From: Candidatus Kapaibacterium sp.
GTDB lineage: Bacteria > Bacteroidota > Ignavibacteria > Kapaibacteriales > UBA2268
Reading direction: 5' to 3'
Assembly: GCA_963664875.1 (NCBI GenBank)
Contig: OY761611.1
Coordinates: forward strand, 2,080,001 to 2,144,000
DNA: 64,000 nucleotides
Shown here: positions 20,359-40,613 of the stretch, piece after piece
Numbering within the stretch: the stretch's first letter is position 1
How the letters are laid out: every line of letters begins with the position of its first letter
Notes under the pieces: generated by a model
Databases searched by the model: none
The model's input: only the letters and a program-made list of their open reading frames with translations
Told to the model about the DNA's origin: nothing
Made by a program: the position numbers and the translations under genes

Positions 20359-21297
20359 ATGGAATATAATAAACAAGCCAAGACCATAGATGAGCAGATT
20401 GCTCTACTGACTTCAAGGGGTATGCTTTTTGAGGATAATGAATATGCGAAAAACATATTATCCAAAATATCATACTACAGGTTAAGAGCATATTGGCTCA
20501 CCTTCGAAAAGGAAAATGTAACCCCTGACTCCCACTTTTTTAAAGCTAATACTTACTTTGAGCAAGTCGTAAAAACTTATGAGTTTGATAGAAATTTGAG
20601 ACATTTAGTATTCAATTCTATCGAAAAAATAGAGATTGCCCTACGAACTCAAATGATATACTGTGTTACGAATAACACTCAAGATATTACATGGTACACA
20701 AAAACTCAATATTTCGAAAAAGTGTATCACTTTAACAATCTTATGGATTTATTTGACAAGGAATATCAAGACAGTAAGGAAGTGTTTATTGAACATTTTA
20801 AAAGCAAGTATAACGACTCACCTTACCCTCCTGCTTGGATGGGCTTAGAAATTCTTTCTTACGGACAACTTTCTAAGCTTTTTAGCAATCTAAAAAGAGA
20901 ATACGGTAAATATGACATCGCTAATTACTTTGGTGTTCCTTTAAGATTGTTGTTGTCCTGGTTTGAAGCATTGACTTACTATCGGAATGTATGTGCTCAT
21001 CACGGAAGATTATGGAACAGAAAGTCACCTAAAGCTCCGATGTATCCTAACAAACCTAAACCGAACAAGCCCCCAATCTTCAAATGGTTAGATTTTGAAC
21101 CTGCTGAAGATAAAAAAGACAGATTGTATGGTAGCTTAGCTATTATTTATCTGTTGCTCAAACCTCTAAACTACCACGAAGAGTATAAAAAAGAGCTGTT
21201 CGATTTAATAAATTTATATAACTTTTTGCCTTTGCATTATATTGGCTTCCCTGAAAAATGGGAAGAGGATTCTTTTTGGAGCAGCGATAATGTATAA
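20359..21297 (+). CDS. AbiD/AbiF-family (Abi_2) HEPN RNase
   Basis: EQIALL.SRG, ISYYRL, YEFDRNLR, IEKIEIALRT, PPAW..EILSYGQL and RNVCAHHGRLWNR (HEPN Rx4H). Confidence 0.92.
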   Translation: MEYNKQAKTIDEQIALLTSRGMLFEDNEYAKNILSKISYYRLRAYWLTFEKENVTPDSHFFKANTYFEQVVKTYEFDRNLRHLVFNSIEKIEIALRTQMIYCVTNNTQDITWYTKTQYFEKVYHFNNLMDLFDKEYQDSKEVFIEHFKSKYNDSPYPPAWMGLEILSYGQLSKLFSNLKREYGKYDIANYFGVPLRLLLSWFEALTYYRNVCAHHGRLWNRKSPKAPMYPNKPKPNKPPIFKWLDFEPAEDKKDRLYGSLAIIYLLLKPLNYHEEYKKELFDLINLYNFLPLHYIGFPEKWEEDSFWSSDNV

Positions 21298-22621
21298 AAA
21301 ATATGATAAATATAAAGATAGTGGTGTTGTTGGAATTGAGCAAATTCCTGCGCATTGGAATATTAGGAGATTAGCAACTTTGGGTAAATTCTCTAAAGGA
21401 TTTGGTATTTCTAAGTCAGACATCTCAGAATTTGGTGAACCTGCTATTTTATATGGAGATATTTATACTAAATATTGTATTAGGACAACTACTTTTCAAA
21501 ATTATATATCAACAGAAACTGCAAAGTATGCAAAAAAAATCAGATGTAATACTTTACTGTTGACGGGTTCGGGAGAAACAAAAGAAGATATTGGCAAATG
21601 TATAGTGTATCGAGGTGCTAAATCTGCTTATGCTGGGGGTGACATTATTCTCTTTGAACCATCAGAAACCAATAGTCTATTGCTAAGTTATATATTAAAC
21701 AGTGAATATGTGAAAGCTCAAAAATATGCAATTGCGAGAGGAGATATTATAGTTCATATTTATGCTTCTGCTCTTAGAGAGTTAACACTTGCCCTCCCCC
21801 CATTACCTGAGCAACAAGCAATCGCTAATTTCCTTGAACATAAAACTAAGTTAATCGATAATATTACAAGCAATAGAAGGCGGCAAATAGAACTGCTGAA
21901 AGAGGAAAGAAAAGCTGTAATTAACCGGGCGGTTACTAAAGGTATTAACCCTGATGTTAAGTATAAGGATTCAGGTGTAGAATGGTTAGGCGATATCCCT
22001 GAGCATTGGGAGGTTGTGAAGTTGAAAAATATAGCTTCAATTAAAAATGGACGAGATCATAAACATGTATATGATGAAAATGGTAAATATCCTATTTATG
22101 GGTCTGGAGGAGTATTTGGTCGAGCAAATGAGTACTTATATGAAAAAACAAGTGTACTATTGGGTAGAAAAGGTACTATCGATAAACCTATTTTAGTAAC
22201 AGAACCATTTTGGACTGTAGATACAGCATTTTATACTGAAATTTCGCAGCAAGTTTTACCAACAATATTTTATTATCTATGCAAACAAATTGATTTTGGG
22301 AAATATGTTTATGGCTCAGCTCTTCCAAGTATGACTCAAAAAGATTTAAAAGAAATTCATTTTGCTCTTCCTACAATAAAAGAGCAACTTGAGATAGTAA
22401 ACTACATAGAAGAGCGAACTAATATAATAGACAAACTAATCAGCAAATATGAAAAACAGATAGAACTTTTAGAAGAATATAAAACTGTATTGATTTCAAA
22501 TGCTGTTACAGGACAAATAGATGTAAGGGATTGGAAGGCAAAAAGAATGGAATATGAAGATAGAGAAGAATCGTTCGGCTTGGATATAGCTGCTGAAGAT
22601 AGTGTTGAGTATGAGAAATGA
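21290..22621 (+). CDS. hsdS: Type I R-M specificity subunit
   Basis: Two YKDSG..IP.HW repeats, two TRDs, PPLPEQQAIA and AVTG conserved regions. Confidence 0.93.
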   Translation: MYKKYDKYKDSGVVGIEQIPAHWNIRRLATLGKFSKGFGISKSDISEFGEPAILYGDIYTKYCIRTTTFQNYISTETAKYAKKIRCNTLLLTGSGETKEDIGKCIVYRGAKSAYAGGDIILFEPSETNSLLLSYILNSEYVKAQKYAIARGDIIVHIYASALRELTLALPPLPEQQAIANFLEHKTKLIDNITSNRRRQIELLKEERKAVINRAVTKGINPDVKYKDSGVEWLGDIPEHWEVVKLKNIASIKNGRDHKHVYDENGKYPIYGSGGVFGRANEYLYEKTSVLLGRKGTIDKPILVTEPFWTVDTAFYTEISQQVLPTIFYYLCKQIDFGKYVYGSALPSMTQKDLKEIHFALPTIKEQLEIVNYIEERTNIIDKLISKYEKQIELLEEYKTVLISNAVTGQIDVRDWKAKRMEYEDREESFGLDIAAEDSVEYEK

Positions 22622-22683
22622 TTTTATATTATTAAATAGTTTTATTATTTTAAAACATTGTACATAAGTAAATTGGTGCAAAA

Positions 22684-23835
22684 ATGGGTGCAGCACTTAT
22701 AAATAATGCTATGCTAAAATGGGCAAGATATCGGGCAAAAGTAGAAATCGATGTTTTAACCAACAAATATCACAAATATAAAGATTGGGAAGAAGGGATA
22801 TCTAATCCCAGTTTTAAACAAGCTCAGAAGTTAGCATCATTATTGAAAGTACCTTTTGGCTACTTGTTTTTAAACACTCCTCCTTATGAAGTCAGACAAA
22901 CTGTAGATTTACGTACTATAGATGACATAAATTTATCTGAATTTAGTTTAGATCTTAAAGAAGTAATAGCTGATGCAATTCAGAAACAGGATTGGTTTCG
23001 GGACTACATTATTGATGCTGGTGCCAAACCACTCGAATTTGCATCTAAATATAGTCCGAGTTCTCCTATTGAAGAAGTTGCTGAGGACATAAGTACAAGA
23101 TTAAATTTGAGCTACTCTACAAGACAAGATATTTCCAGTAAAGATGCAATGTTACAATACCTAACTGAACAATCAGAAAAAGTTGGAATATTAGTAATTA
23201 GAAATGGGAAAGTTGGGTTTAATACACATAGATCTCTGAAAGTAGAAGAGTTTAGGGGCTTTGCTCTCCCTGATGAGTATGCACCTCTAATATTTATCAA
23301 TTCAGCTGATTACAGAGCCGCTCAAATTTTCACTTTAGTTCATGAGATAGCACATATATGGATTGGTATTGAAGGCGTTTCCAATTATTCAATATCTCAG
23401 CAAGCAAACAGACACTCAGAAATTGAGTTACGGTGCAATGCAATTGCAGCTGAAGTTTTACTTCCAACAGAGTTGTTTTTAGAAAATTGGCGTTTACACT
23501 CGGAAAGATTAGCACAAAAGTACGAAGCATTAGCAAATCATTTTAAAGTAAGTTCTATTGTTGTTGCGAGAAAAGCATTAGATATGGAGCTAATTGATAA
23601 AAGTGATTTTTTCGAATTCTATAATATTTTAGTTAAGAGATGGAACGCTTCAAAGTCAAAATCAAGTGGTGGGAATTTCAATGCGTCTTTTCCTATTTCA
23701 AATAGTAAAAGATTCACAAAGACAATTTTGTATGAAATCTCTAAGGGAAATCTGTTATTAAGGAATGGAGCGAGACTTCTAAATTCCAAAGCTTCTACTG
23801 TTTTTAACTACGGGAAGGACAGAGGGATTTTATGA
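22684..23835 (+). CDS. XRE-HTH + ImmA/IrrE metallopeptidase
   Basis: LKWAR..WEEG..PSFKQ..LA..VPFGYL HTH; FRGF..PLIFINSAD..FTLVHEIAHIW (HExxH). Confidence 0.9.
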   Translation: MGAALINNAMLKWARYRAKVEIDVLTNKYHKYKDWEEGISNPSFKQAQKLASLLKVPFGYLFLNTPPYEVRQTVDLRTIDDINLSEFSLDLKEVIADAIQKQDWFRDYIIDAGAKPLEFASKYSPSSPIEEVAEDISTRLNLSYSTRQDISSKDAMLQYLTEQSEKVGILVIRNGKVGFNTHRSLKVEEFRGFALPDEYAPLIFINSADYRAAQIFTLVHEIAHIWIGIEGVSNYSISQQANRHSEIELRCNAIAAEVLLPTELFLENWRLHSERLAQKYEALANHFKVSSIVVARKALDMELIDKSDFFEFYNILVKRWNASKSKSSGGNFNASFPISNSKRFTKTILYEISKGNLLLRNGARLLNSKASTVFNYGKDRGIL

Positions 23836-24317
23836 AATACTTAATTGATACTAATGTCTTTATTGAAGCTCACCGCATGCGATATCCTTTTGACCTTTTT
23901 CCTTCTTTTTGGGAATGGTTAGCTGCTAAATTTGATAATGGAGAAATTTATTCAACGGATTTGGTTTTACAAGAGATTATGAACGGTGGTGATTCGTTGG
24001 CAACATGGGTGAAACAAAAAAAGAACGATAATTGGTTTATATCGGAAAGTGCTGATGATTCACAGCATGAGTTTATAAACATTGCAAACAATGTTATGAA
24101 GGCGAATTTCAAAGATAAAGCAAAACAAGATTTTCTTGCTGTTGCTGATCCATGGCTAATTTCAGTAGCTGCTGTAAATAATATGACTCTTGTAACGCAA
24201 GAAAAATCAAATCCAGCAAGAACCAATAAGATTTTTATTCCTGATATCTGCAATCTCTACAAGGTTCCTTATATAGATACATTAGGAATGATTAGAGAAT
24301 TAAAAGGTAAATTCTAA
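23832..24317 (+). CDS. DUF4411-family PIN-domain protein
   Basis: YLIDTNVFIEA..FWEWL..ADPWLI..LVTQE..IPDIC; overlaps the ImmA gene. Confidence 0.9.
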   Translation: MKYLIDTNVFIEAHRMRYPFDLFPSFWEWLAAKFDNGEIYSTDLVLQEIMNGGDSLATWVKQKKNDNWFISESADDSQHEFINIANNVMKANFKDKAKQDFLAVADPWLISVAAVNNMTLVTQEKSNPARTNKIFIPDICNLYKVPYIDTLGMIRELKGKF

Positions 24318-27271
24318 TGCAAAACCCGAAAGAAAAGAATTTTGAAGATATAATATTTGATTACTTTTCTAAAAGTCCCTTATTTGTGGCACGTTCAAAA
24401 CATCAGTACAATCAGGAAAAGATGTTTGATGTTGAGCTCTTAGAAACTTTTCTCCGCAAGACACAGCCTGTAGAGTGGAAAAAATTAGAAAGGCAGTTCC
24501 CCGGACAAGAAATAGAAGAAGTAATAAAAGAATTTAATGCTTTAAGAAGAAAAAGAGGAATCCTCGACATACTTCGATTTGGATTTACACTTCGTGGAGC
24601 TAATCTCAAATTTGCATATTTCAAACCTGCATCTGGTTTTAACAAAGAACACAAAGAAAAATATGAAGCAAATAGATTCTCAGTTGTTCGGCAGTTCCAA
24701 TATAATACCTCACACACAAAAGAGATTGATTTAGTTATCCTTCTTAATGGTATTCCTCTTATCACAATGGAGTTGAAGAATGAGAACACAGGGCAAAATG
24801 TACATCATGCAATTAAGCAATATTCCGATCCGAATCAAAGAGACCACAGAGATCCTTTTTTTAAGGCATGTTTAGTACACTTTGCAGTAGATAATGAGTC
24901 AGTTTTTATGACAACACAGCTAAAAGGAAAAGATACTTATTTTCTTCCTTTTAATCGTGATACCAAAAATCCTCCAATAGAAAACAAGTATGCCTCTTCA
25001 TATCTTTGGGAAGAGATATTGCAGGCGGATAGCTTGCTAAATATTTTACAAAACTTTGTAATGCACCAAAAAGATAAAAAAGGTAAAATCCTTCGAGAAA
25101 AACCAATTATCTTTCCCCGATTTCACCAATTGGATGTAGTTAGAAAACTGCTGTCAGATGTAAAACAGACAGGAAGCGGTAAAAACTATTTAATTCAACA
25201 TAGTGCAGGTTCAGGCAAATCAAAATCGATCTCTTGGTTGGCACATCAGTTATCAAATCTGTTTGACAATGAGAATCAGAAAATATTTGACAGTGTTATT
25301 GTAATTACTGATAGGCGAGTTCTTGATCAGCAGCTACAAAAAGACATTTTAGAATTTGAAAATACTAAAGGTGTTGTAGAAGCAATTGGGAAAAACAAAA
25401 CAAGTAGGCACTTAGTAAGAGCTATAGAAAGCGGAGCTAAAATAATTGTTTCTACATTGCAAAAGTTCGGTACCGATAACATTGCACGTATTGCAGATTT
25501 AGGCTGCAGACGGTTTGCAATTATTGTTGATGAAGCTCATAGCTCACAGACAGGAGAAAACTCTAAGGATTTAAAAGTTGCCCTTACCTCCGAAGGTCAA
25601 TTAAAAGAGATGTTGATAGAAGATGGGTACGATAATGAAGATCCAATCGCAAATGAGCTTGAAAAATTGATGAAGCAAAGACAGCAATTACCACATTTAT
25701 CGTTCTTTGCATTTACAGCAACTCCAAAGCCAAAAACTTTTGAAATATTTGGAATACCCGATAAAGAAAGAAACTCAGGATTTAGAGCTTTTCACTATTA
25801 TACAATGCGTCAAGCAATAGAGGAAGGATTTATTTTAGATGTGCTTGAGAACTATACGACTTATAGTAGCTATTTTGAGTTGATAGAAAAAAGTGAAGAT
25901 GTAAAGACAAAAGAATATGAGAAGGGTACAGCTCGTAGATTGTTGCTCAAAGAAGTAGGCAAACATCCACATGCAATCAGTCAAAAAGTACACGTCATGC
26001 TTGACCATTTCATGAACAATACTATCAATAAAATCTCAGGTCAAGCCAAAGCAATGGTAGTTACAAGCTCAAGAGCACATGCTGTACTCTACAAAAAAGA
26101 GTTTGATAAAATACTATCAGAAATGTATAACAACAGAACAGAAGCACTTGTCGCATTTTCTGGGGAGGTGACTTTTGATGGAGAGAGTACTGTTTATACA
26201 GAAGAAAAGATGAACCCCAAAGATGCGAAAGATATTAGAAATGCTTTTGATACTGAAAAGTATAGGATATTGATTGTTGCAAACAAATTTCAAACAGGTT
26301 TCGATCAACCTAAGCTGCATACAATGTATGTAGAAAAGGTTCTTGGAGGAGTTGCTACAGTACAAACTCTAAGCAGATTAAACAGAAGAGCAGATAATAA
26401 AATTGATACAATGGTAATTGATTTTGTAAACGAACAAGATAAGATTAAAAGAGATTTTCAAGATTATTACCAATCAACGATGTTGGATAAAGCTACAGAT
26501 ACGCAGAAATTATATAATCAAAAATATGAAATCGAAAAGTATCAGGTATTTACCAAAGACGATGTGGATACGTTTATAGAGCTCATATTAGAGAAAAAAG
26601 ATAATAGTGGTAAGATTATTAGTTTAATTCAAAAAGTTATAGAAACAGGATATTTGACCTTAGATGATGAAGAAAAACCTGAATTTCGTAAGAAAACAAA
26701 TAATTACATCAGGTCATATTCTTTCTTATCTCAAATTATTACCTACATAGATATAGAGCTTGAGAAGTTCTATTTGTTTACTAAAATACTTTTTAAATAC
26801 CTGCCTTGGGAACGTGAGTCGCTGCCGTTAGAAATAACTGAGATGGTTGATATGGACAAATATGCTCTTCAAGAACAGGAAAACGGAAGTATATTGCTTG
26901 AAAAGCTTGATCAGATAATAGAAAACAAACAAAAAGACGGTCACGGGAAAAAATTAACTACTAAAGAAATGTTAGAAATAATTGTTACTGAAATCAATGA
27001 ACAATTCGGTTACGAGTTTAAGGACTTCCACAAAGTTATAAATGATGTTAAAGATTACCTCAAACAAAACGAATCTTTGAAAGCTACGATGCAAGCTAAA
27101 GATATTGGAGAAGCTAAACGTTTAAAATTCAACGAAGTCATAAACGAAGCTTTTATTGATAATATAGATAAGTTTATGGAAGTAGTTACAAAGATGGATG
27201 AAAACAAAGCATTTGAAAAATATCTTAAAGGTTCCTTATACAATTGGTTCCTAAGAGAACTTGACGAATAG
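24317..27271 (+). CDS. hsdR: Type I R-M restriction subunit
   Basis: D..ELKN nuclease motif, HSAGSGKS, DEAH, FTATP, QTGFDQP and QTLSRLNR. Confidence 0.95.
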   Translation: MQNPKEKNFEDIIFDYFSKSPLFVARSKHQYNQEKMFDVELLETFLRKTQPVEWKKLERQFPGQEIEEVIKEFNALRRKRGILDILRFGFTLRGANLKFAYFKPASGFNKEHKEKYEANRFSVVRQFQYNTSHTKEIDLVILLNGIPLITMELKNENTGQNVHHAIKQYSDPNQRDHRDPFFKACLVHFAVDNESVFMTTQLKGKDTYFLPFNRDTKNPPIENKYASSYLWEEILQADSLLNILQNFVMHQKDKKGKILREKPIIFPRFHQLDVVRKLLSDVKQTGSGKNYLIQHSAGSGKSKSISWLAHQLSNLFDNENQKIFDSVIVITDRRVLDQQLQKDILEFENTKGVVEAIGKNKTSRHLVRAIESGAKIIVSTLQKFGTDNIARIADLGCRRFAIIVDEAHSSQTGENSKDLKVALTSEGQLKEMLIEDGYDNEDPIANELEKLMKQRQQLPHLSFFAFTATPKPKTFEIFGIPDKERNSGFRAFHYYTMRQAIEEGFILDVLENYTTYSSYFELIEKSEDVKTKEYEKGTARRLLLKEVGKHPHAISQKVHVMLDHFMNNTINKISGQAKAMVVTSSRAHAVLYKKEFDKILSEMYNNRTEALVAFSGEVTFDGESTVYTEEKMNPKDAKDIRNAFDTEKYRILIVANKFQTGFDQPKLHTMYVEKVLGGVATVQTLSRLNRRADNKIDTMVIDFVNEQDKIKRDFQDYYQSTMLDKATDTQKLYNQKYEIEKYQVFTKDDVDTFIELILEKKDNSGKIISLIQKVIETGYLTLDDEEKPEFRKKTNNYIRSYSFLSQIITYIDIELEKFYLFTKILFKYLPWERESLPLEITEMVDMDKYALQEQENGSILLEKLDQIIENKQKDGHGKKLTTKEMLEIIVTEINEQFGYEFKDFHKVINDVKDYLKQNESLKATMQAKDIGEAKRLKFNEVINEAFIDNIDKFMEVVTKMDENKAFEKYLKGSLYNWFLRELDE

Positions 27272-30342: not shown

Positions 30343-30375
30343 AAACCCTCCTACACTCAACTTTAGGAGGGTTTT
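30343..30375 (+). terminator. Terminator after primase-helicase
   Basis: aaaccctcct..aggagggtttt. Confidence 0.75.
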
Positions 30376-30376
30376 C

Positions 30377-30402
30377 TATAACAAATCCAAATTTCTTACG
30401 TA
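30377..30402 (+). promoter_or_regulatory. ECF-sigma-like promoter
   Basis: TATAAC-N16-CGTA; TGTAAC-N16-CGTA also at 51765-51790 (-) and 53704-53729 (-). Confidence 0.5.
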
Positions 30403-30424
30403 AATCAATTATAAACGATTTTTT

Positions 30425-30535
30425 GTATCAAGAACACATAAGTGTACCAACCGAGCAAAAATGCCACGGTGGTAAAGTGATACGGCTTTTATAAGCAAAA
30501 ACCACTTCTTGGTACTCCATTTTAACATAGGAGTA
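30425..30535 (+). ncRNA. SAM-I/IV-like riboswitch, copy 1
   Basis: P1 GTATC/GATAC, J1/2 AAGA, P2 ACAC/GTGT, P3 ACC-AA-CCG..CGG-T-GGT, P5 GCTT/AAGC, then a TACTCC/GGAGTA anti-SD hairpin. Confidence 0.7.
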
Positions 30536-30541
30536 TTTTCC

Positions 30542-31144
30542 ATGCCATTAGCAAAACCAATACCCGGATTCTCAATTCCAACTCGGACAGAGAAAAAGTA
30601 TTACAGATATTACAACACGCGTTGCCTAATTCAATCTCGCTCAGCAGAATTCAAAGATTTCTACAAAAATCCGCAAGGCTCGAGATACCTTGCCGAAAAA
30701 ATGGGTTGGACAAAACTAAATAAGTTTATTGGAAGAAGAGAGGGATGGGACAATTTATTGATTCCAATTCCAAAGACTTATCTTGAACTTCTTGGACTAA
30801 GTAAGGAAGATATTGAATATACAATTTCCTTAGATCAAGAGTATTATGATGAAATCCTAAAGACTGAAACTACTTATAAAGAAAGTTATTTAGTCTTCCG
30901 ATGGGCGATAAGAACAATAAGATTTCCTCATCCTTTGACTGAAGAAGAAGCTATTGATTTCAGCAGACAGCAATTGCTGAAGGAAAAGGTTTATAAACAA
31001 GTGCTGATAAATAGGATGCCTTTATATCAGCTTTATGTTACAAGAGAAAAGACGTTTTATGATTACAACAGACCTGCTTTTGCTTATGATGGAAAGTGGT
31101 ATAAGTTTATTAGCACACAATTACCGGGATTGTCTTTGAAATAA
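30542..31144 (+). CDS. Hypothetical protein with a possible HTH (LAEKMGWTKLNK)
   Basis: ATG at 30542 after AGGAG; first gene behind riboswitch copy 1. Confidence 0.7.
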   Translation: MPLAKPIPGFSIPTRTEKKYYRYYNTRCLIQSRSAEFKDFYKNPQGSRYLAEKMGWTKLNKFIGRREGWDNLLIPIPKTYLELLGLSKEDIEYTISLDQEYYDEILKTETTYKESYLVFRWAIRTIRFPHPLTEEEAIDFSRQQLLKEKVYKQVLINRMPLYQLYVTREKTFYDYNRPAFAYDGKWYKFISTQLPGLSLK

Positions 31145-31611
31145 TGGAGAGAGATATGGCAAACGCATATTGGATTCTACCTAAGAATATAACTGAAGAG
31201 TCTGCTGTTATTGAAGTGAGAGCAAAACACATAGATACTGTAATTGATAATCCCAATCTTTTTGGTTTGACCTTGATGAACATCCGAAAGACTTATAAGA
31301 AGTATGACGAAAAAATTCGATTTGAAGGATTTGCAAGAGAAGAAATTGTAAAATCACTGATAATGAAAGGCTACATTCATATTCGCAAAAATTTAAAGAC
31401 TGATTGTTGGAGAATAACATCTACAGATTTCTTCAGCGGTCTAAATGAAGCGGAGCAAACTACACTCAGCAGATTAGCAGATTGGTACCTTGTTGTTTCA
31501 CAAGAGAGGGAGCATCGCCATTCTGATTTCGAAATAATAATAATTGAGGGTAATGGTAGAAGATATGGAAATCAAGAGTTTAGAAATTTGGTTTTAGGGA
31601 AAGTAAATTAA
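31144..31611 (+). CDS. Hypothetical protein (phage/mobile-element type)
   Basis: Coupled to the previous gene; YWI.P..HID.VI.NP..FGL..EG.AREEI...GYI.IR pattern; followed by hairpin 31668-31703. Confidence 0.7.
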   Translation: MERDMANAYWILPKNITEESAVIEVRAKHIDTVIDNPNLFGLTLMNIRKTYKKYDEKIRFEGFAREEIVKSLIMKGYIHIRKNLKTDCWRITSTDFFSGLNEAEQTTLSRLADWYLVVSQEREHRHSDFEIIIIEGNGRRYGNQEFRNLVLGKVN

Positions 31612-31902
31612 ATCAATTTTAGATATATAAAATAGTGATATAGATTGAAATTTCCCCTCAAACAACAACAATCCTGCACTCAAAAAAATGAAGTGCAGGA
31701 TTGTAATTAACCTACTATTTACGAAATTTTATATTTTCTATTTACATGAAAGAAAATATTTGATAATTTGAATCTAATATTTTATATTGCTATTATGTAG
31801 GACTTATTAACATTTTTATGAGAATCGCATATCAGAAAGAAAAATCAGAAAAATAACATATAACAGAAAATTTTAAATAAGAGTAATCTTAGATTCTTTG
31901 GG

Positions 31903-32013
31903 TCAGACAAAAACCGCAAATTTTTAAACAACCCCCAAGGATACTATAAGGACTCCACACGTGTGGATGTCTATATGTATCTATGAGTTGTGCCTTTTGC
32001 GGGGCTTGTCTGA
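31903..32013 (+). promoter_or_regulatory. Long imperfect hairpin in the leader of the membrane-protein cluster
   Basis: Nested pairs tcagacaa/ttgtctga, ccgcaaa/tttgcgg, acaac/gttgt, gatac/gtatc, with a perfect tccacacgtgtgga apex. Confidence 0.6.
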
Positions 32014-32130
32014 GTAGATATGTATAAGGCATCCTTTTTTTTATGGCATATCTGCATCTCCTCAAAGATTAGTTACCTAATATATGAATCCCATTTTAAA
32101 CAAAAATATAAAACTAACGATGAGGCAGAA

Positions 32131-33858
32131 ATGATTCGTATTATTTCTCTATTCCTAATAACCTTAGTACTGCTTCAATCATGTACTACAATTTCTTATA
32201 AACAAGAAGATTGGACATCTGATAAATCAAGAGGACTTCATATTTACGAAAATATCCGTAAAGACGAGTCTTATTCTTTATGGTCATATTTGACATTCAC
32301 AGGAGTACCTTTAGCTGCATTTGCTGGCGGAGGTCAAGCATATTATGATATTGCAACAAAAAATGGAACCCCTGCTGATTCTGCAAGAGATATTAGAAAC
32401 TTAATATGGGCAGCAGGTTTATTTGCAGCAGGGTCTGGGGTTTATTACCTAATAAAACAAGATTCCACACTTCCAAAAGGTCAATCAATTTATGGAGCTT
32501 CTGCTATTGAAGAGTGGTTCGTAAGCGAATTTGATACAGATGATTATATCCTTCTTGGATTTAGTGGAAGTACAGCTTACGTATTAGAGGCAGACAAGGA
32601 AAACACATTTGGAGCAAGAAGTAATAGTGAACTTAAAAGTATTTACTCAGCTATGAAAAATTATGTAGTTGATAAAAACATTTTAAGTAAGATTGCAAAA
32701 AATTCGGTAAAAACAATTCCTAAATCTGAACACTTTGTGGCTTATTATACTCTTGATAAAAAGTATCCGATATTCTTGACTGATTGTATTGATGAGATTT
32801 ATGAAATAAAAGATTTGTATATCTATGCAAGTGAAATTGAAGTCTTAAAAGATGATAAGGTAAAGAGCGAACTCCGAAGTAAAACAGCTAAAAGAATATT
32901 TGACAGAATACAAGAATCCTATTCAAACGAAATAGCATACTATGATGAATGGCTTAATTTTTACTCAAAATATGAGGATGGAGAAATCTTAACACTTAAA
33001 GGTGAAATGGTAAAAAAATACCAAGACATTGTACTCTCAAAATATGAAGTATTAGCTAAACTACTAAAGGAATTAGAAGAAGAGCAAGATCTTGAGGTAA
33101 AAAAAATAAAAACAACTCTCACTTCCTATAAAAATGATATTGATTTAGAATTAAAAAAGATATTAGTAAAAATGGATAACTTTATAAAACATGCTCAGAG
33201 TAAAGATTCGGGTAAACAACTCACATTAGAAATTCAGGAATTTGAAGAAAATCTTACAAGAAAACTAAAATCTTCAGAAGAGTTGAAAGCAAATATTTCA
33301 GATGTATCTGATAAAATGGTGTATTTCGATTTTAATAAAGAGAATATTAATTATACTGTATTAGAATTGTTGAATTCGAAGAAAGAAGATATAGAAAACA
33401 CATTATTGAAGATAAAAACAAAAACCAATAAAGCGAAACAAGAAGTAGAAGTAGAGACACAAGTTTTTAAGGTTTTTGTTTCAGAGATTCATGACAAACT
33501 AAACACTAAAGAGGAAGAACTAAAACATGAAGGAGAACTGCAACGAGAAAGACTTAAAGAACAGCGGAGAAAAGAGCAAAAAGCCTTGATTGCAAAATTA
33601 GAACAAGGTGACTGTATTCAATTTGGGACTTTTACAGATGGTTTTAAAATGACAGCATTTTTCTCCACTGCTGAAGTTATGGAAGAGTTGGCTTCTGATG
33701 AAGAAAATGAAAATGTTTATAATTGGCATAGTGTTCAATTTATAAGACTAAAAGGTAATATGATGACTGTTAGGTTTATGAGGAATATGCTGGGTTATGA
33801 AGCAGGACAAGAGATATTCTTGAATATAAACAATTCAAAACTGAGAAGTTGTCGTTAG
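32131..33858 (+). CDS. Lipoprotein with TM hairpin and long coiled coil
   Basis: LLQSC lipobox from ATG 32131; E/K/L heptad-rich C-terminal half. Confidence 0.75.
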   Translation: MIRIISLFLITLVLLQSCTTISYKQEDWTSDKSRGLHIYENIRKDESYSLWSYLTFTGVPLAAFAGGGQAYYDIATKNGTPADSARDIRNLIWAAGLFAAGSGVYYLIKQDSTLPKGQSIYGASAIEEWFVSEFDTDDYILLGFSGSTAYVLEADKENTFGARSNSELKSIYSAMKNYVVDKNILSKIAKNSVKTIPKSEHFVAYYTLDKKYPIFLTDCIDEIYEIKDLYIYASEIEVLKDDKVKSELRSKTAKRIFDRIQESYSNEIAYYDEWLNFYSKYEDGEILTLKGEMVKKYQDIVLSKYEVLAKLLKELEEEQDLEVKKIKTTLTSYKNDIDLELKKILVKMDNFIKHAQSKDSGKQLTLEIQEFEENLTRKLKSSEELKANISDVSDKMVYFDFNKENINYTVLELLNSKKEDIENTLLKIKTKTNKAKQEVEVETQVFKVFVSEIHDKLNTKEEELKHEGELQRERLKEQRRKEQKALIAKLEQGDCIQFGTFTDGFKMTAFFSTAEVMEELASDEENENVYNWHSVQFIRLKGNMMTVRFMRNMLGYEAGQEIFLNINNSKLRSCR

Positions 33859-33915
33859 ATATTTATTATTTATTATAAATACAACTATAGTTCAACTAAC
33901 TTAAGGAAAACAAAC

Positions 33916-34113
33916 ATGACACAAAATTCAACAGTTTCAGTAGGGCAATGGATTGGTAAGCTTATTTTGGCATCAATTCCAATCATTGGTCTAATTATGC
34001 TAATCGTTTGGGTGGCAGGAGACAGCACTCCCAAAGTTATTGCAAACTGGGCAAAAGCACTATTAGCATTCCAAGCAATAGCATTCTTTTTAGTTATTTT
34101 AAGCATGATGTAA
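33916..34113 (+). CDS. Small membrane protein (paralog A)
   Basis: SVGQW..IPIIGLIMLIVW..ANWAKA. Confidence 0.75.
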   Translation: MTQNSTVSVGQWIGKLILASIPIIGLIMLIVWVAGDSTPKVIANWAKALLAFQAIAFFLVILSMM

Positions 34114-34128
34114 CGAGGAGTAATTCAA

Positions 34129-34425
34129 ATGGAAAACACAGCACTAAACAACTTTGATGTTGCATCTAATCAAAATGAAATGTCTTTCGGGCAGTGGTTT
34201 GTAACATATCTAATTACAGCAATTCCTATAGTCGGATTTATAATGCTATTTGTTTGGGCATTTGGATCTGATACCAACCCGAATAAAGCAAATTGGGCAA
34301 AAGCATCCTTGATACTAATCGGTATAGCTATTGTCTTGGGAATAATACTTTTTGCAGTAATGGGACTTGCAATCGGAGGCTTAGTAATGTCAATTTTAGG
34401 TGATATGCCTGCAGAAGGCATATAA
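34129..34425 (+). CDS. Small membrane protein (paralog B)
   Basis: SFGQW..IPIVGFIMLFVWAFG..ANWAKA; GAGGAG SD. Confidence 0.8.
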   Translation: MENTALNNFDVASNQNEMSFGQWFVTYLITAIPIVGFIMLFVWAFGSDTNPNKANWAKASLILIGIAIVLGIILFAVMGLAIGGLVMSILGDMPAEGI

Positions 34426-34558
34426 ATTAGGAAGAAAATCTTAGAACTTTATTCAGGCAGGTTGCAATTCTTTATACACCTGCCTGAAAAAATGATGATA
34501 TTTTACACTTTATAGATAACAATCCTTGAATATCAAGGAAATACTATTAAGGAAATGT

Positions 34559-36229
34559 ATGAGTAACACAATATACCAAGAAACAACTTCAGAATGGATT
34601 TTAGTTAGATTCTATATGGCTCTTATGTTTTTACTTGAATTGTTCGGAGATCCTGATAAACCTGAATTGCTTGGAAGATTTAAAGTAGAGTGCGAAAATT
34701 GGAAGACAGCACTTGGCGAAGAAAGCTACAAAAAGCTAAAAATCGAAATTGAAAAAATTGAGATGCGAATTGAAACCGGGAAAATTAAGAACAGAGCCCA
34801 ATTGATGTATTGGGAACATCAACTTTGGATAAAACTAAAAAGTAATTATAACAACCGTTCTTTACCGAATATTGACAGACTAAGTTATGATGACTTCTTG
34901 ACATTTAATCAGTTTAAAGATTACCATATAACTTATAAACAGGTGATATCGAAAAATTACTCAGCTCCGCTTTACAAAAGATTTTTAGAGTTCAAAGAAA
35001 ATCTAAGTTGGTCAAAAATATTTATTCAAGTCGGAGTTTACTTCATTAGTTTGATAGCTATTTCATACCTTAACTCTGAAGTGCTGGGAATAGATTTCGC
35101 AAATGACGAGCCGACTGCCTTAAGTGGTCAGGCAGGGCTTATGCAATTATTTCTTCCGTTTCTTATTGCAAAATTTGTAGGAAAAAGATATAAGTTTTCT
35201 AAATATAAGGCATGGTTTAAAAAATATTATGATGAAAATGACTCGGATCATCACGGTATATTAAATCAACTAAGTGATGAAGAAAAGAAAGAGATGTACT
35301 TATATATGAAATCTGACACTACTGAGAATTCTGATTCTGATAGAGTCAACTTCGCAAGGAAAGAAGAGATAGAAGAGACACAGACAGAAATAGAAACACA
35401 ACCAAAAAAAATGGATGCTGATTTTCAAGATTTGAAAAAATCTATATCTGAAGAAAAGTACAAAATAAATGATAGTGAAACCAAGGAGGATAGGTTAATA
35501 GTTCACAAGACTGATAAGCAGCTCAGAGAAAAAATTATAGAAGAGGTATTTGGATTTCAAGAAGAGCCGGTAGAATTTCTATCTTTCTACAGCAATTCGG
35601 ATAGATATATATATGTTTTTATGCTTGTTCCACCAATAATAGCTGCTTCCGTGTTATTTGTTAGAAATATACTTAATGGTGATTCAAATATATTGATGAA
35701 TATCTTAATTTTCATTGCGATGCTATTAGCATTTTACGTCGCTTGGTTTCTATTCTTGGTAGCAATGCCATACATTATAGTGGTGATATTTGGGATATTA
35801 TATCTTGCAACTTCTTTGGTAGTTTGGATATTGGATTTGATAATCTCACCTTTTTTACCAAAAGAAAAGAAGAATATCCTGAGAAAAGTTTTTGATAAGT
35901 ATTTCAAAGACAATAAGAAAGCAGAAAAAGTAAAACTCACTCCTAAACAAAAAGAAAAACTGCTTGTCCGAGTAGATAAAAAGGGACTGCAATATAAAAA
36001 TCGCTTTTATGCTTGGAAAGACATAGAGTTGCCTGAATCATTCAGGAAGCTTGTTTTAGAGGTTATGTTCAAAGAACTTGACTCAAATCTTGACTCTAAC
36101 ACATTTAATCTAAATTTTAATTACAAAGGTAAGAAAACAAACTTGCACGTAACTCATGTTGGAGATTCCTATATGATATACGGAGCAGTATGGTATTTCT
36201 ATAATTTAAGAGAAGAACAGGCTCAATAA
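34559..36229 (+). CDS. Multi-pass membrane protein of unknown function
   Basis: Two hydrophobic clusters separated by an acidic linker. Confidence 0.7.
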   Translation: MSNTIYQETTSEWILVRFYMALMFLLELFGDPDKPELLGRFKVECENWKTALGEESYKKLKIEIEKIEMRIETGKIKNRAQLMYWEHQLWIKLKSNYNNRSLPNIDRLSYDDFLTFNQFKDYHITYKQVISKNYSAPLYKRFLEFKENLSWSKIFIQVGVYFISLIAISYLNSEVLGIDFANDEPTALSGQAGLMQLFLPFLIAKFVGKRYKFSKYKAWFKKYYDENDSDHHGILNQLSDEEKKEMYLYMKSDTTENSDSDRVNFARKEEIEETQTEIETQPKKMDADFQDLKKSISEEKYKINDSETKEDRLIVHKTDKQLREKIIEEVFGFQEEPVEFLSFYSNSDRYIYVFMLVPPIIAASVLFVRNILNGDSNILMNILIFIAMLLAFYVAWFLFLVAMPYIIVVIFGILYLATSLVVWILDLIISPFLPKEKKNILRKVFDKYFKDNKKAEKVKLTPKQKEKLLVRVDKKGLQYKNRFYAWKDIELPESFRKLVLEVMFKELDSNLDSNTFNLNFNYKGKKTNLHVTHVGDSYMIYGAVWYFYNLREEQAQ

Positions 36230-36270
36230 GCTCAATTTGATATTGATTCATTATTGAAAGGATATACATT

Positions 36271-37119
36271 ATGTTTTGTAAAGAATGTGGTAAAGAAATA
36301 CAGAAAGGAGCAAACTTTTGTAACAAATGCGGAATTAAGGTAATAGCTTTAGATGGTGAGGAGTCGGTTGTTTTACAAAATACAAAAGGCTCAAATGAGT
36401 CAAAAATAATCTTTCCCAAAAGAGTTGTATTCTTTGCTTTTCTTCCGGGGGCATTATTAATTCTATCAATGGGAATTGTATTTAATTGGGGAACTATCCA
36501 AACTTGGGTTTCGGCAAAAGAAATCCGCATTTTTAATCAAACATGGATGACTCGCAATTTAGATGTGATATCTTATAAGAATGGAGACTTAATCCCCCAA
36601 TGTAAAAACAGTTATGAATTGGAAAATGCTTCTCGAAACAAAATTGGAGCATGGTGTTATTATAACTTTGATGAAAGTCGAGGAGCAAAATTTGGGAAAC
36701 TTTACAATTGGTATGCAGTCTCTGATGATCGTGGAATCGCACCAGTTGGATATCGTATTCCTACAGATGAAGATTGGCAAACATTAGAATCATTGCTTGG
36801 ACTGTCAGAACATCAACTTGAGTCATTCGATAGGAATAATAAATCTATTGGTATAAAACTCATTGGGTTTGAAAGTTTATGGAACTATACTGAAAAGATG
36901 GAAGAAATCGGTGAAAGTGGTTTTTTAGCAATTCCAAGTGGCAAATATGAAGACGGATTCTCAGGTTTATGTGTTGTCAGTACTTGGTGGACAGCTACTG
37001 AACTTTCAGATACTAATGCAATTTCAAGATCTCTTAAAGTTGAATACTCCTCAGATGAACTTCTTCGAGAAAGCAGTAACAAGGAGAACTTTTATTCTAT
37101 TAGGTTGATTAAAGATTAA
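36271..37119 (+). CDS. Zinc-ribbon + TM + Fibrobacter succinogenes major paralogous (FISUMP) domain protein
   Basis: MFCKECG..FCNKCG; QTWMTRNL, GKLYNWYAV, G.RIPTDEDW and YSIRLIKD. Confidence 0.85.
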   Translation: MFCKECGKEIQKGANFCNKCGIKVIALDGEESVVLQNTKGSNESKIIFPKRVVFFAFLPGALLILSMGIVFNWGTIQTWVSAKEIRIFNQTWMTRNLDVISYKNGDLIPQCKNSYELENASRNKIGAWCYYNFDESRGAKFGKLYNWYAVSDDRGIAPVGYRIPTDEDWQTLESLLGLSEHQLESFDRNNKSIGIKLIGFESLWNYTEKMEEIGESGFLAIPSGKYEDGFSGLCVVSTWWTATELSDTNAISRSLKVEYSSDELLRESSNKENFYSIRLIKD

Positions 37120-37147
37120 CCAACAAACCATAGGAATCGTTCAATAA

Positions 37148-38230
37148 ATGGAGTATAATATGCGAAATTGTTCTGCTTGTAATTTACCGATTGCAGAAAA
37201 TGCCAATTTCTGTAATAATTGTGGAGAGAAAGTTAACCACTTGAAAATTTGTTCAAATTGCAGAGCCGAAAATCATCAAGATTCAAAGTTTTGCTCGAAT
37301 TGTGGAAATAAAATAGGAAGTGACACCAATAATTTGCCAAATCGTAAAGCTGTGGAAGGAGAAGTATTTATACATAAATCCAATGCTACTGTTATTGATA
37401 AACAAAAGTCGGTAGCAACTGAGGATGACAGTAAAATAGACACAGAATCAAATCAATCAGCTCCAACTAAAGAGACTAATAGAACGACTTGGTTCTACAG
37501 AAAAAATGGGCAAGTCTATGGTGCATATGACTTTGAGAAAATATTAAAACTTACTTTAGATAATACTATTTCATCTGATACAGAAGTAAGTTCAGACAAT
37601 CAGGAGAATTGGCAGGAAGCTAAGATAATTGTAAATCAAAATGCACAGAGATTGAATCAAGATTTACCAAAAGTTTGGTTCTATAGCAGAAATGGGGACA
37701 GAGAAGGTCCTTTTACAGAATTTGAAATGAGATTAGCAATTGAAAAAGAACATATTAGTTACGGAGATGCTGTTTATAAAGAGGGCAGACATAACTGGGT
37801 TGCTGTTGAAGATACAGAGCTGAAGAAATACATTCACACTCCACCTCCTGTGTTAGGAGAAAATGCCCCGAATGGTTCAATTTGGTGGGTTGCATTTTCT
37901 CCATTAATTAGTAGTCTTGTACTTCTTCTAATTATGAGTTTCAGTTGGGAGCAATATATACAAACCAACGTCCAAGCTTATGCTGATTTATATCACTTTT
38001 TAAGCAATTGGGGGGGTGTCGTTTATATCATGTTTAATCTGATATTTATCGGGATTGATTCTTCTAAACTTAAAAATTTAGGTCATGATACTGAACAATT
38101 TGGGTCAATATTTTGGATTCCTGTTTACATTTGGAAAAGGAATAAAATTCTACAAAAGACTCAAGCAAGTTTTTGGATATGGATGATCCTAACTTTTTTT
38201 GATGTTTTGATTGGACCTGCATTGATGTAA
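37148..38230 (+). CDS. Double zinc-ribbon + two GYF_2 (DUF4339) domains + TM protein
   Basis: Four CxxC pairs; WFYRKNGQVYG and WFYSRNGDREGPF..W; PPP followed by TM helices. Confidence 0.85.
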   Translation: MEYNMRNCSACNLPIAENANFCNNCGEKVNHLKICSNCRAENHQDSKFCSNCGNKIGSDTNNLPNRKAVEGEVFIHKSNATVIDKQKSVATEDDSKIDTESNQSAPTKETNRTTWFYRKNGQVYGAYDFEKILKLTLDNTISSDTEVSSDNQENWQEAKIIVNQNAQRLNQDLPKVWFYSRNGDREGPFTEFEMRLAIEKEHISYGDAVYKEGRHNWVAVEDTELKKYIHTPPPVLGENAPNGSIWWVAFSPLISSLVLLLIMSFSWEQYIQTNVQAYADLYHFLSNWGGVVYIMFNLIFIGIDSSKLKNLGHDTEQFGSIFWIPVYIWKRNKILQKTQASFWIWMILTFFDVLIGPALM

Positions 38231-38280
38231 GAAATATGATTTAATAATATTAAAATAAAAACAAAAAAGGAAATAACACT

Positions 38281-38766
38281 ATGTCAAATTTTATCACAGA
38301 TTTTATAAACTCAATCAGAAAAAAAATTGTTTGGGTAGGGTTTAGTTTTGTTGATTGGGCAGAAGATCTTGATACTGCCGAAAAGTTAGCTAAATTTATA
38401 GAAACTCAAATTAAAGATAAAGAAGATGACTATAAGTTCTTTACCAGTAATGATGAAGAACGGAAAGTTCTACTTGCAAAAATTGTAGAAGATGCTTTAG
38501 AAGAAGGTAGAAAAGAAGCCGAAGAAGAGCTACAAAAAGAAGTTGTATTTAGCACAAGTGAGTATGAGCACTTGTTTGAAGAGGCAATGCAAAAAGCCAA
38601 AGAAGATCTTGTAGAATTTGAAGAGAAATTTGTAGAAGCAGAAGCAAAAGAATTTATCGAAGTTTTGAAGCTTGTTCTTCAAGAAGTCAAAGACGGCAAA
38701 CATGGAGATGATTTGGTTTCTGCTATGAAAAGAGTTGAAGAGCTCACAAGCTATGAAGCATTTTAA
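38281..38766 (+). CDS. Acidic helical hypothetical protein
   Basis: Clean ORF with SD; E-rich. Confidence 0.7.
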   Translation: MSNFITDFINSIRKKIVWVGFSFVDWAEDLDTAEKLAKFIETQIKDKEDDYKFFTSNDEERKVLLAKIVEDALEEGRKEAEEELQKEVVFSTSEYEHLFEEAMQKAKEDLVEFEEKFVEAEAKEFIEVLKLVLQEVKDGKHGDDLVSAMKRVEELTSYEAF

Positions 38767-38797
38767 ATTGGATAATTCTCAATACATTACATATTAA

Positions 38798-39871
38798 ATG
38801 TTTATGTTAAAATCTAAGCATGGTTCAAAGAAAATTGAAAAGCTCATAGATTGGGCTTATGAAAAATCTTTTGAAGGACTGCCTGGCACATATTCTGCAA
38901 TAGAGCTTGCTGATTCGGTTTATAATCCAAATGATAGTTTACTTTCTATGGCAAACAAAATCATCAGGAAAGAAACCTCAAAAGCTTCTATTTCAGGATT
39001 TATAACAGGCTTAGGCGGTCTTTTAACTATGTCTTTTATGATTCCTGCATCTTTAGTTGGCGTTACATTCCTACAGATGCGAATGGTAGCTGCAATTGCA
39101 CATTTAGCAGGGTTTGATTTGAAAGATAAAAAAGTAAAGACATTTGTTCTTTTAAGTTGGACAGTTGGTAAAACGGCAGATTTACTTAAAAATGTAGGTG
39201 CCAAATTTGCATCCCACACAGCAGGCGAATTGTTAGTGAAAGGTTTAAGTGAGGAAGCAATCAAGATAATCAATGAAACTGCTCTGAAGTCAATAGTACA
39301 GCGTTTATCAGTCAAAGGAGCAGAAGAAGTTACTTATAGTATTCCTCTCTTAGCAAGCATTGTAGGAGCATCCTTTGACGGAATCTCAACACTGATGATT
39401 GGGAACCGTGCTAAACAAATCTTTATAGTAAGAACCTCAAAAGAAGAAGACAATAATCGACTTGAAGAACATCTTAAGTTAGAGTACAACAAAATTGCTT
39501 TGTATATCAACTTGATAAAAATTGATGGAAAACTTCAAAGGCAAGAAATTAAAGTAATAGAAAAACTAATTGTTGAATCTGACTTGCCTAAAGTAGATAA
39601 ACGTACATTTGGTGAATCTCTGTGGGATTGTAAGCTAATACAAGTCGATTTTGCTTTGTTGAATAACCATCCTTTTGAAAAGCACAACATTCTATACACT
39701 TTGTTGGATTTAGCGAAAGTTGATGGAGAAATTGCTGAGCGTGAATTGAATTATGTCAGATTGATAGCCAAAAAACTGAATGTAAGCGAAAGAGCATTTG
39801 GGAATATTTTTAATACTGAATTTAGAAGCATTGTTACCGACAACGCCTCGAAATTTGATGTGTTGAAGTAA
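38798..39871 (+). CDS. EcsC-family protein fused to a TerB-like domain
   Basis: GFITGLGG..PA..Q.RM.AAIAH..G.D (EcsC); IDG..E and LAKVDGEIAERE..IAKKL (TerB). Confidence 0.8.
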   Translation: MFMLKSKHGSKKIEKLIDWAYEKSFEGLPGTYSAIELADSVYNPNDSLLSMANKIIRKETSKASISGFITGLGGLLTMSFMIPASLVGVTFLQMRMVAAIAHLAGFDLKDKKVKTFVLLSWTVGKTADLLKNVGAKFASHTAGELLVKGLSEEAIKIINETALKSIVQRLSVKGAEEVTYSIPLLASIVGASFDGISTLMIGNRAKQIFIVRTSKEEDNNRLEEHLKLEYNKIALYINLIKIDGKLQRQEIKVIEKLIVESDLPKVDKRTFGESLWDCKLIQVDFALLNNHPFEKHNILYTLLDLAKVDGEIAERELNYVRLIAKKLNVSERAFGNIFNTEFRSIVTDNASKFDVLK

Positions 39872-40613
39872 TTATAAATTTGACGATTCCATTTGTACCT
39901 CAATCTTCGTTATATTAAGCTCCCCCCCCCCCAAATGTGTAGAAGAGAGAGATTTTTTTGTTTTATTCTTTATAAGCTTAATATGCTTCATCACTGATAA
40001 TATTAAATATTTATATAACTAATCAGCGAGGAAACAGTTTTGTATATAATATTGTAAATGATTTATATTTCTAATATTTAAAGCATTTTTATTGTTTATC
40101 TGTAAATCTCAAAGATGAAAAAGAATGCTACAAGTTAGCATTTTAACTTGAACTACAAACTCTTGATTGAAATAAAGTCAAAAAGAAGAATGAGTGGTAT
40201 AAAATATGAAGTATTTAAGATAGAAGGTTAAGAGATAAAGAAGCAGACATAACAATATAAATAATAGCAAATAAGCCACATAAATCTATTCTGTTAGGTT
40301 TTTATTGAAGAGCAGGATGTTTTAGTTGATAAACATGAAAAGCTCTTAAAATAGCTATTATGGCGAAATATTAGCTTTAAAGATTTAAGTTTAAGAAAAA
40401 ACGACTCTAAATTAGCTTTCCCTTCCAATAATATTTCCAAGAAGCACCAAAAATTGTAAATTTATGCAGCCAACCTGTTTTAAAAACATACCTATACAAT
40501 TTTTTCAAGTTAATTATCAACTTAACTGAAATTTTATTTTTGTAATTGCTGTGTATTTTATATATTCACATTATAAGTTAATGATATTCTCTTTATCTAT
40601 TTGCGGAGGCTTT

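Follow-up and report, generated by a model that had tools for sequence, protein, structure and literature searches.

Why should a riboswitch that senses S-adenosylmethionine (SAM) stand at the head of genes that have no evident part in supplying SAM, inside an island of restriction-modification genes? SAM riboswitches normally control genes for methionine (Met), cysteine (Cys), or SAM, that is, the supply of SAM itself. In a 64,000-nt stretch of a “Candidatus Kapaibacterium” genome (contig OY761611.1, positions 2,080,001 to 2,144,000; hereafter the window, whose own numbering we use), an original prediction made from the letters alone had proposed that two similar noncoding segments, here called copy A and copy B, are SAM-I/IV-like riboswitches and that the island may use them to sense SAM, for example to detect its depletion by phages. 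We conclude that both elements are genuine SAM-I/IV-class riboswitches, a known sensor with a new kind of output and not a new RNA class. They are likely to be working OFF switches that let accessory genes of the island be translated only when SAM is low.

The whole window was scanned with Rfam cmscan, and three matches exceeded their gathering scores: one tRNA and two SAM-I/IV aptamers (RF01725, gathering score of 41.1 bits). Copy A lies at 30420-30511 on the forward strand (61.7 bits, E = 9.1e-8) and copy B at 51662-51756 on the reverse strand (69.3 bits, E = 1.9e-9), and a whole-genome search with RF01725 recovered the same two sites. The proposed class is thus confirmed, as is the proposed architecture without P4: P2 is a single hairpin of 4 to 5 bp with no internal loop or kink-turn, J3/1, which leads from P3 into the 3' side of P1, is 4 to 6 nt long and holds no helix, and an extra hairpin is present 3' of P1. 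In copy A, pair counts over 14 related leaders place P1 at 30425-30429 with 30479-30483 and the hairpin that follows it at 30485-30496 (forward strand); in copy B, the 5' strand of P1 is at 51751-51747 (reverse strand). The core columns UAU, AAGA, CCAACCGA, ACGGU, and GAU are the same, or almost the same, in all 14 leaders, in line with the claim that the SAM-contacting bases are retained, and judged from sequence they appear to correspond to the pocket residues described in PMC6890682 (SAM-I numbering 6-8, 11-12, 44-47, 57-59, and 87).

The likeness between 30425-30535 and the reverse complement of 51633-51751, from which the prediction had started, also stands. Global alignment gave 94 identical columns out of 122 and a score of 62.5, compared with a mean of -4.2 (standard deviation [SD], 4.1; maximum, 11.5) over 300 shuffles. 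The 300 nt 5' of each copy scored 16.0 (shuffles, 8.8 ± 5.6), and the genes behind them, compared over their first 600 nt, scored 33.5 (shuffles, 13.5 ± 8.1, a difference of ∼2.5 SD). These scores imply that the surroundings of the two copies share little or nothing.

To judge the fold, we aligned 14 leaders, each from aptamer to start codon, from 9 genomes in 5 genera, built a covariance model from the alignment, and realigned the same leaders to it. Over 28 pairs, 95.2% of the cells were paired (slid controls, ≤48.5%), and compensatory changes on both sides were found in 10 of the pairs, a count reached by none of 500 shuffles. Double changes affected all four pairs of P2, in which pairing across the leaders was 98.2%, as well as three of four in the hairpin after P1, two of eight in P3, and one of five in P1. 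The P3 difference first seen between the two copies (ACC/GGT versus GCC/GGC) recurs in the larger set, where the pair is A-U in 7 leaders and G-C in the other 7. The homologues do therefore covary, a point on which the original prediction had staked itself, and the aptamer part of the fold agrees with the independent Rfam model. A short ACGTA-A/T motif, spotted by eye ∼20 to 25 nt 5' of P1 in most leaders, could belong to a promoter or be a site for a protein; promoter and terminator scans around both leaders gave counts at the shuffle level.

The sequence between aptamer and start codon suggests how binding could be turned into control. In copy A, the expression platform (30506-30544, forward strand; from anti-P1 pair counts and folds) comprises an anti-P1 segment (30506-30515) that overlaps an anti-Shine-Dalgarno segment (30512-30518), the Shine-Dalgarno sequence GGAGTAT (30530-30536), and the start codon (30542-30544). 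The platform of copy B (51622-51662, reverse strand; from folds and from the leader covariance model R1, which matches 51622-51756 at 120.7 bits) has its anti-P1 segment at 51662-51655, its anti-Shine-Dalgarno segment at 51655-51651, the Shine-Dalgarno sequence TGGAG at 51638-51634, and the start codon at 51624-51622. In all 14 leaders, the 5' strand of P1 together with J1/2 (GUAUCAAGA) is complementary to a downstream UCUUG-A/G-UAC, and this segment overlaps the anti-Shine-Dalgarno sequence AUACUCC. Because the 5' strand of P1 can alternatively pair with a segment that overlaps the anti-Shine-Dalgarno sequence, a P1 stabilized by SAM should hide the ribosome-binding site. The anti-P1 helix has nine pairs, 94.4% of which are formed across the leaders (slid controls, ≤53.2%).

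Folds of the 14 leaders, computed with ViennaRNA without constraint (minimum free energy), with P1 forced, and with anti-P1 forced, agree with this design. The unconstrained fold equaled the anti-P1-forced fold in 11 of them, and the P1-forced fold lay 1.6 to 7.2 kcal/mol above the anti-P1-forced fold in 13, the exception being leader L023, in which forcing P1 gave the more stable structure. GGAG was fully paired in the P1-forced fold of every leader; in copy A, where the unconstrained fold is the anti-P1 fold, forcing P1 pairs the entire Shine-Dalgarno sequence. As modeled, the design is a standard translational OFF switch, and the conserved alternative pairing fits the claim that the genes are on at low SAM. 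When SAM is absent, the long-range anti-P1 helix would form and leave the Shine-Dalgarno sequence largely free; when SAM is bound, P1 would be locked and the downstream segment released to pair with GGAGUAU, and the first cistron would go untranslated. The cistrons gated in this way would be a gene that we call A1 (then A2) at one end of a duplicated block and a small helix-turn-helix (HTH) gene (then those for RtcB2, a 216-aa protein, and PrfH) at the other. Since OFF switches precede these island genes, their proteins should be made only when cellular SAM falls.

What, then, are the genes behind the switches? None of recognized Met, Cys, or SAM type lies behind copy A or copy B, so the description of the downstream genes as nonmetabolic holds. 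A1 (200 aa; 30542-31144, forward strand), the first cistron behind copy A, starts 30 nt 3' of the aptamer and is followed by A2 (31156-31611, forward strand), which has 151 aa, or 155 aa if started at 31144; its database versions begin at the 151-aa form. Neither protein matched Pfam, NCBIfam, PHROGs, or PADLOC. A1 has 81 distant representatives among 1.84 billion, and Pfam searches with 73 family members gave only four single weak matches and no domain of note. Its profile reached a best E value of 0.37 against PDB sequences, and its AlphaFold2 model, although confident (predicted local distance difference test [pLDDT] score, 90.4), had no Foldseek match in PDB or BFVD at E ≤ 0.001; the top, nonsignificant fold matches include several DNA-binding repressors. 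For A2, 20 relatives were found, and its model (pLDDT, 85.5) had no fold match by Foldseek; a conserved N-terminal domain of ∼90 aa is joined elsewhere to varied C-terminal parts. The ESM Atlas had no usable match for either protein, a word-indexed homologue search gave four clusters for each, a genome-contig scan with A1 gave only two close loci, and no relative of A1 or A2 turned up by tblastn among 50,697 phage records. Two labels of the original prediction accordingly lack support: “HTH-like” for A1, which has no family match or significant fold match, and “phage type” for A2, which has no PHROG match and no relative in the phage records. As for the terminator assigned to this operon, a strong, terminator-like hairpin does follow A2 (31668-31704, forward strand; -22.1 kcal/mol), but it has no T-run and the terminator scan did not report it.

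The operon behind copy B was not covered in the first reading. Its first gene, B1 (51388-51624, reverse strand), starts 37 nt 3' of the aptamer and encodes a small winged-helix-like protein of 78 aa with a weak match to the FUR family (E = 0.0024, below the cutoff). Next come RtcB2, a release-factor-H-coupled RNA ligase (50194-51306, reverse strand; PF01139, E = 1.4e-69), a 216-aa protein with no family at cutoff (49541-50191, reverse strand), and PrfH, peptide chain release factor H, with an RF-1 domain (48903-49526, reverse strand; TIGR03072, 246.9 bits against a cutoff of 166.65). RtcB2 exceeds the cutoffs of both NF007153 (485.3 bits; cutoff, 407) and TIGR03073 (437.4 bits; cutoff, 271.8), and the two equivalogs are codirectional with the 216-aa open reading frame (ORF) between them, as members of a PrfH-RtcB2 module. 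PADLOC-DB 2.0 (5,027 models, E ≤ 0.01) assigned no family to any of eight proteins, including A1, A2, the HTH protein, RtcB2, the 216-aa protein, and PrfH. In a second genomic copy of this operon, rtcB (L002, 1951-3062) reads as two ORFs of 79 and 300 aa, which is a frameshift or a sequencing error.

The pairing of switch and genes is not peculiar to this locus. The complete genome from which the window comes holds five RF01725 copies, and all five precede operons of the A1 type (three, one of them a 69%-identical paralogue) or of the HTH-RtcB type (two). Of 130 genomes from the taxonomic family, 10 had RF01725 matches above the gathering score, as did 8 of 151 in a sample of the phylum. At the 16 places in the family, the first gene downstream belonged to the A1 family in 10 cases and to an HTH-RtcB operon in 3; the other 3 were an HTH-RtcB remnant that has lost its platform (genome G003), a 245-aa protein followed by an AAA_15/DUF3696 ATPase (G007), and an A2-like protein (G010). 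A gene of the usual Met/Cys/SAM regulon came first at none of the five places in the genome itself and at none of the 16 in the family. A search from the other side, with the A1 profile, picked out 12 places with strong matches (E ≤ 1e-40), spread over 8 of the 130 family genomes. They form 11 operons, and a riboswitch stood directly upstream of all 11, ten above the gathering score and one, in G096, at 38.8 bits. The coding sequences are only ∼25 to 35% identical between genera, yet the leader is kept. A1 itself is present in 9 of the 130 family genomes and in 3 of 401 in the phylum sample, and RtcB2 exceeded its cutoff at five places in three family genomes, three of these places having the riboswitch.

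Several single loci add detail. At the G003 remnant (L006/L013), platform and operon are lost but the B-type aptamer persists, ∼320 nt away from an Aminotran_5-rhodanese gene; the restriction R-subunit-like gene that flanks it also flanks the second copy in the window genome. One metagenomic contig, kin of the locus found in G135 and G140 (L143, 5963-6689), has a SAM-I/IV aptamer directly before an A2-family protein, not A1, so that A1 and A2 appear able to replace each other as the gene that comes first after this leader. In G113, two tandem A1 paralogues share one riboswitch, and the second (L081; G113:C340:15921-16529) has one in-frame TAG. Classical SAM-I elements in relatives precede pyridoxal phosphate-dependent enzymes of Cys/Met metabolism, a homoserine acetyltransferase-like hydrolase, and a TonB-type receptor (80.8 to 93.2 bits). 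The window genome had no match to RF00162, RF00521, RF00634, RF01724, or RF01726, two of which also matched no control genome.

Beyond the phylum samples, a DNA pattern of the aptamer core, drawn from the present subtype, found at least 82 loci, 80 metagenomic and 2 viral. RF01725 reached its gathering score at 17 of 20 loci checked, and one more, L143, reached 54.6 bits in a more sensitive run. The first ORF was scanned with Pfam for 72 of 83 pattern matches, the remainder having no ORF (six) or one shorter than 60 aa (five). Among the 72 first ORFs listed, 12 were weakly NADAR-like, 3 had an S-AdoMet_synt_N domain, 2 were P22-portal-like, and 7 other families occurred once each; family members sum to at most 24, leaving at least 48 with no family match. 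Local hmmsearch among the same ORFs found none with the A1 profile and one with that of A2. On three gut-metagenome contigs (L093, L108, and L114), SAM-I/IV heads operons of a weakly NADAR-like protein of 256 to 268 aa and/or a protein of 332 to 354 aa, and the last gene of these operons encodes a short protein (262 aa) that carries an S-AdoMet_synt_N domain. Given a SAM synthetase-like gene further down the three inspected operons, the finding that only 3 of 72 first genes are canonical is no proof of a noncanonical regulon; part of the metagenomic diversity is canonical, and the sample is therefore unusable as a census of regulons. Two IMG/VR contigs in which the pattern precedes a P22-portal-like gene were taken as chance, since they had no Rfam match at E ≤ 0.1. 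In other Bacteroidota families, SAM-I/IV precedes a transporter of the Na_H_antiporter family.

Several observations weigh against the picture of SAM-gated island genes. The realigned leaders were fitted to a model made from the same sequences, and the set includes close kin, so the pair counts lean toward structure. The anti-P1 helix has no compensatory changes, both strands being nearly invariant, and its support is one of conservation only. In most leaders, the predicted ON folds keep part of the Shine-Dalgarno sequence in short, weak hairpins, which makes the predicted contrast between ON and OFF one of degree. The SAM-I/IV class presumably carries a pseudoknot, PK-2, in which the P3 loop pairs with the 3' tail; when contiguous standard pairs alone were sought, the longest such helix in each of the 14 leaders was of 1 to 4 bp and was equaled by 262 to 500 of 500 shuffles. 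In the part of the literature consulted, PK-2 is described for SAM-IV. Among more distant genes, neither an A1 homologue in another family (G057, E = 1e-24) nor a weak, partial A1 match (G120) had an upstream Rfam match at E ≤ 1. Of the five RtcB2 loci in the family, two lack the riboswitch, also when filters were switched off: one is a plain rtcB-prfH pair and the other a lone rtcB. Finally, SAM binding, the direction of switching in vivo, and the control of later genes are what we infer from sequence; control of RtcB and PrfH may be indirect, because sequestration of the Shine-Dalgarno sequence acts on the first cistron only and 81 nt separate the HTH gene from rtcB.

The surroundings of the two leaders are those of a restriction-modification island, as had been described, with Type I and MmeI-like systems on the flanks. 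Upstream of copy A are HsdM, Abi_2, HsdS, an IrrE-type peptidase-HTH protein, a DUF4411/PIN protein, HsdR, and a 795-aa protein with a phage-family match, whose gene is followed by a hairpin (30343-30374, forward strand; -15.6 kcal/mol by ViennaRNA). The Type I system (18097-27271) is interleaved, Abi_2 lying between hsdM and hsdS and the IrrE-type peptidase-HTH and DUF4411/PIN genes between hsdS and hsdR. Beyond copy B and a tyrosine integrase (51875-53107) come REase-ARP, a T5orf172 protein, a DEAD helicase, and an MmeI-like enzyme. The last three form a trio in the window (55159-62090, reverse strand), with REase-ARP beside it, and again next to a riboswitch-A1 unit of another genus (L088, 9720-15521).

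Self-BLAST revealed what the first reading had not covered, namely that the two leaders, facing inward, are the ends of a duplicated cargo block of ∼21 kb (30373-51791). Its edges lie ∼47 nt upstream of aptamer A and 35 nt upstream of aptamer B, and the same genome holds a second copy (C1:1357509-1377184), alike apart from an inserted insertion sequence (IS) and a diverged middle. By self-BLAST, 30373-40596 is 99.1% identical to C1:1377184-1366961, and 45475-46986 and 48462-51791 are 97.6% and 95.6% identical, respectively, to parts of C1:1362367-1357509. The IS, at 46982-48465, interrupts the window copy; it encodes a DDE_Tnp_1_4 transposase and has two other copies at 99.5 to 99.6%. Elsewhere in the window, a 1.2-kb repeat (5306-6526) has at least six other copies at ≥99.5% identity. 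A same-genus relative has the same B...A arrangement, and a restriction R-subunit-like gene lies directly next to the second genomic copy. In G096, the riboswitch-A1 unit adjoins relatives of the 795-aa gene and of the MmeI-like/helicase/T5orf172 trio (45 to 72% identity), and in G113 its neighbors are GmrSD and a WCX-domain regulator; in G135 and G140, a DUF2779 protein was the only one recognized among the neighbors scanned.

Why an island should make these proteins when SAM is low can be read in more than one way; the readings overlap, each was judged on its own, and their probabilities do not add up to one. Low SAM may signal Met or sulfur shortage or slow growth and so call up small regulators (A1 and the HTH protein) and PrfH-RtcB2 with no link to phages, a reading that we hold to be possible and put forward tentatively. 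The first cistrons are indeed small, one is winged-helix-like (by its weak FUR match), the nonsignificant fold matches of A1 include DNA-binding repressors, and the leaders mark both ends of a duplicated cargo block, which is part of an element that carries a tyrosine integrase; PrfH-RtcB2 is, in the parts consulted of PMC9304027 and PMC9223846, a pair for ribosome rescue and repair. However, the triggers given in those same parts are cuts by ribotoxins, not starvation, no DNA-binding domain is significant in A1, and the Met and SAM genes of the host have no SAM riboswitch of the five classes searched. We consider it doubtful, if plausible, that the trigger is instead a phage that depletes SAM, for example with a SAM lyase, so disabling the Type I and MmeI-like systems and derepressing back-up genes, with A1 and A2 as effector or regulator and RtcB2-PrfH repairing damaged ribosomes. 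OFF logic would give expression at low SAM, as such a system needs, but it is unspecific, because any SAM riboswitch is an OFF switch. Also in its favor are the setting, a defense island with SAM-dependent restriction neighbors; the recurrence of restriction genes near riboswitch-A1 units (G096, G113, and the second genomic copy); and the G007 riboswitch before the 245-aa protein and AAA_15/DUF3696 ATPase. SAM lyase as a counterdefense against restriction has also been published, to go by the part of PMC7877911 consulted. Set against this, A1, A2, the HTH protein, and the 216-aa protein match none of the 5,027 PADLOC models, Foldseek gave no toxin-like or nuclease-like fold for A1 or A2, and, for G133, G135, and G140, no restriction system was recognized among 10 neighbors scanned (from L084, L085, and L087; none came from L086, which is G133). 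That the riboswitch is itself an RNA immune trigger, sensing a lyase-caused collapse of SAM and translating A1 and A2 plus an HTH-controlled RtcB2-PrfH back-up set, strikes us as unlikely.

The conventional explanation, that A1 and/or A2 are unrecognized enzymes or carriers that raise or spare SAM, would bring the locus back to the supply of SAM that such riboswitches usually control. It draws on the three gut-metagenome operons that end in an S-AdoMet_synt_N protein behind the same aptamer type, which indicate that uncharacterized partners of SAM metabolism behind SAM-I/IV exist, and on the Na_H_antiporter-family transporter behind SAM-I/IV in other Bacteroidota families. Yet A1 is rare (9 of 130 in the family and 3 of 401 in the phylum sample) and found in variable island contexts ill suited to core metabolism, neither A1 nor A2 has an enzyme family or fold match, and the same leader heads HTH-RtcB2-PrfH, which has no known link to SAM synthesis; we think this explanation quite improbable. 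Far less credible still is that the aptamers are relics, or respond to a changed ligand, having lost SAM sensing while being carried along on a mobile promoter-leader cassette. The G003 remnant, which keeps a B-type aptamer with no platform or operon, is what such decay might look like, and the P3-loop/3'-tail pseudoknot was not found. But the core columns vary little or not at all among the 14 leaders, P2, P3, and the hairpin after P1 have compensatory changes, and the platform is kept across five genera despite coding identities of ∼25 to 35%.

Whichever reading holds, a well-supported member of the SAM riboswitch class has been wired repeatedly, and in different genera, to genes without an evident tie to the supply of SAM: the A1 family, always with the switch in the strong family operons, and PrfH-RtcB2, on mobile islands with SAM-dependent restriction enzymes. 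Should the switch behave as the sequence suggests, the SAM level is an input to the behavior of the island or of its defenses, and “needed when SAM is low” becomes a functional handle for two orphan protein families and for the regulation of PrfH-RtcB2. Were the genes part of ordinary feedback, the locus would point to unrecognized SAM-related proteins; were they a back-up against phages, it would be a case of a riboswitch that triggers immunity by sensing a metabolite. Our literature search found no paper joining riboswitch, RtcB, and PrfH and, among the papers listed, nothing on SAM riboswitches in phages, mobile elements, or the control of defense, the gene contexts in the supplement of PMC2864571 lying outside the search.

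Compared with known systems, the two elements are closest to the SAM-I/IV variant of Weinberg et al. (2010, PMC2864571), which the part consulted presents as mostly metagenomic and as missing the P2 internal loop. They resemble it in score, in a P2 with no internal loop, in a SAM-I-like core, and in having the hairpin after P1 and not P4. They differ in that no P3-loop/3'-tail pseudoknot is detectable and in that the genes controlled would be A1/A2 and HTH-RtcB2-PrfH and not those for Met, Cys, or SAM. With SAM-I (S-box, RF00162) they share the clan, the design of the binding site, and the OFF logic, whereas P4 and the P2 kink-turn are features of SAM-I; according to the part of PMC6890682 consulted, SAM-I, SAM-I/IV, and SAM-IV have a common pocket and a different periphery. 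The PrfH-RtcB2 pair passes its equivalog cutoffs and lies in one operon, as in the published ribosome rescue and repair module (PMC9304027 and PMC9223846, in part), but here it has a small HTH gene before it, a 216-aa insert, and a SAM riboswitch at its head, all three of which are absent from two other RtcB2 loci in the same genus. The nearest parallel for a back-up against phages is offered, as an analogy only, by the PrrC anticodon nuclease. It guards the EcoprrI Type I restriction system, and a phage peptide acts on the protein itself to activate it. There too a back-up sits inside a Type I locus and is switched on when a phage disables restriction, whereas the trigger proposed here would be a metabolite sensed by RNA.

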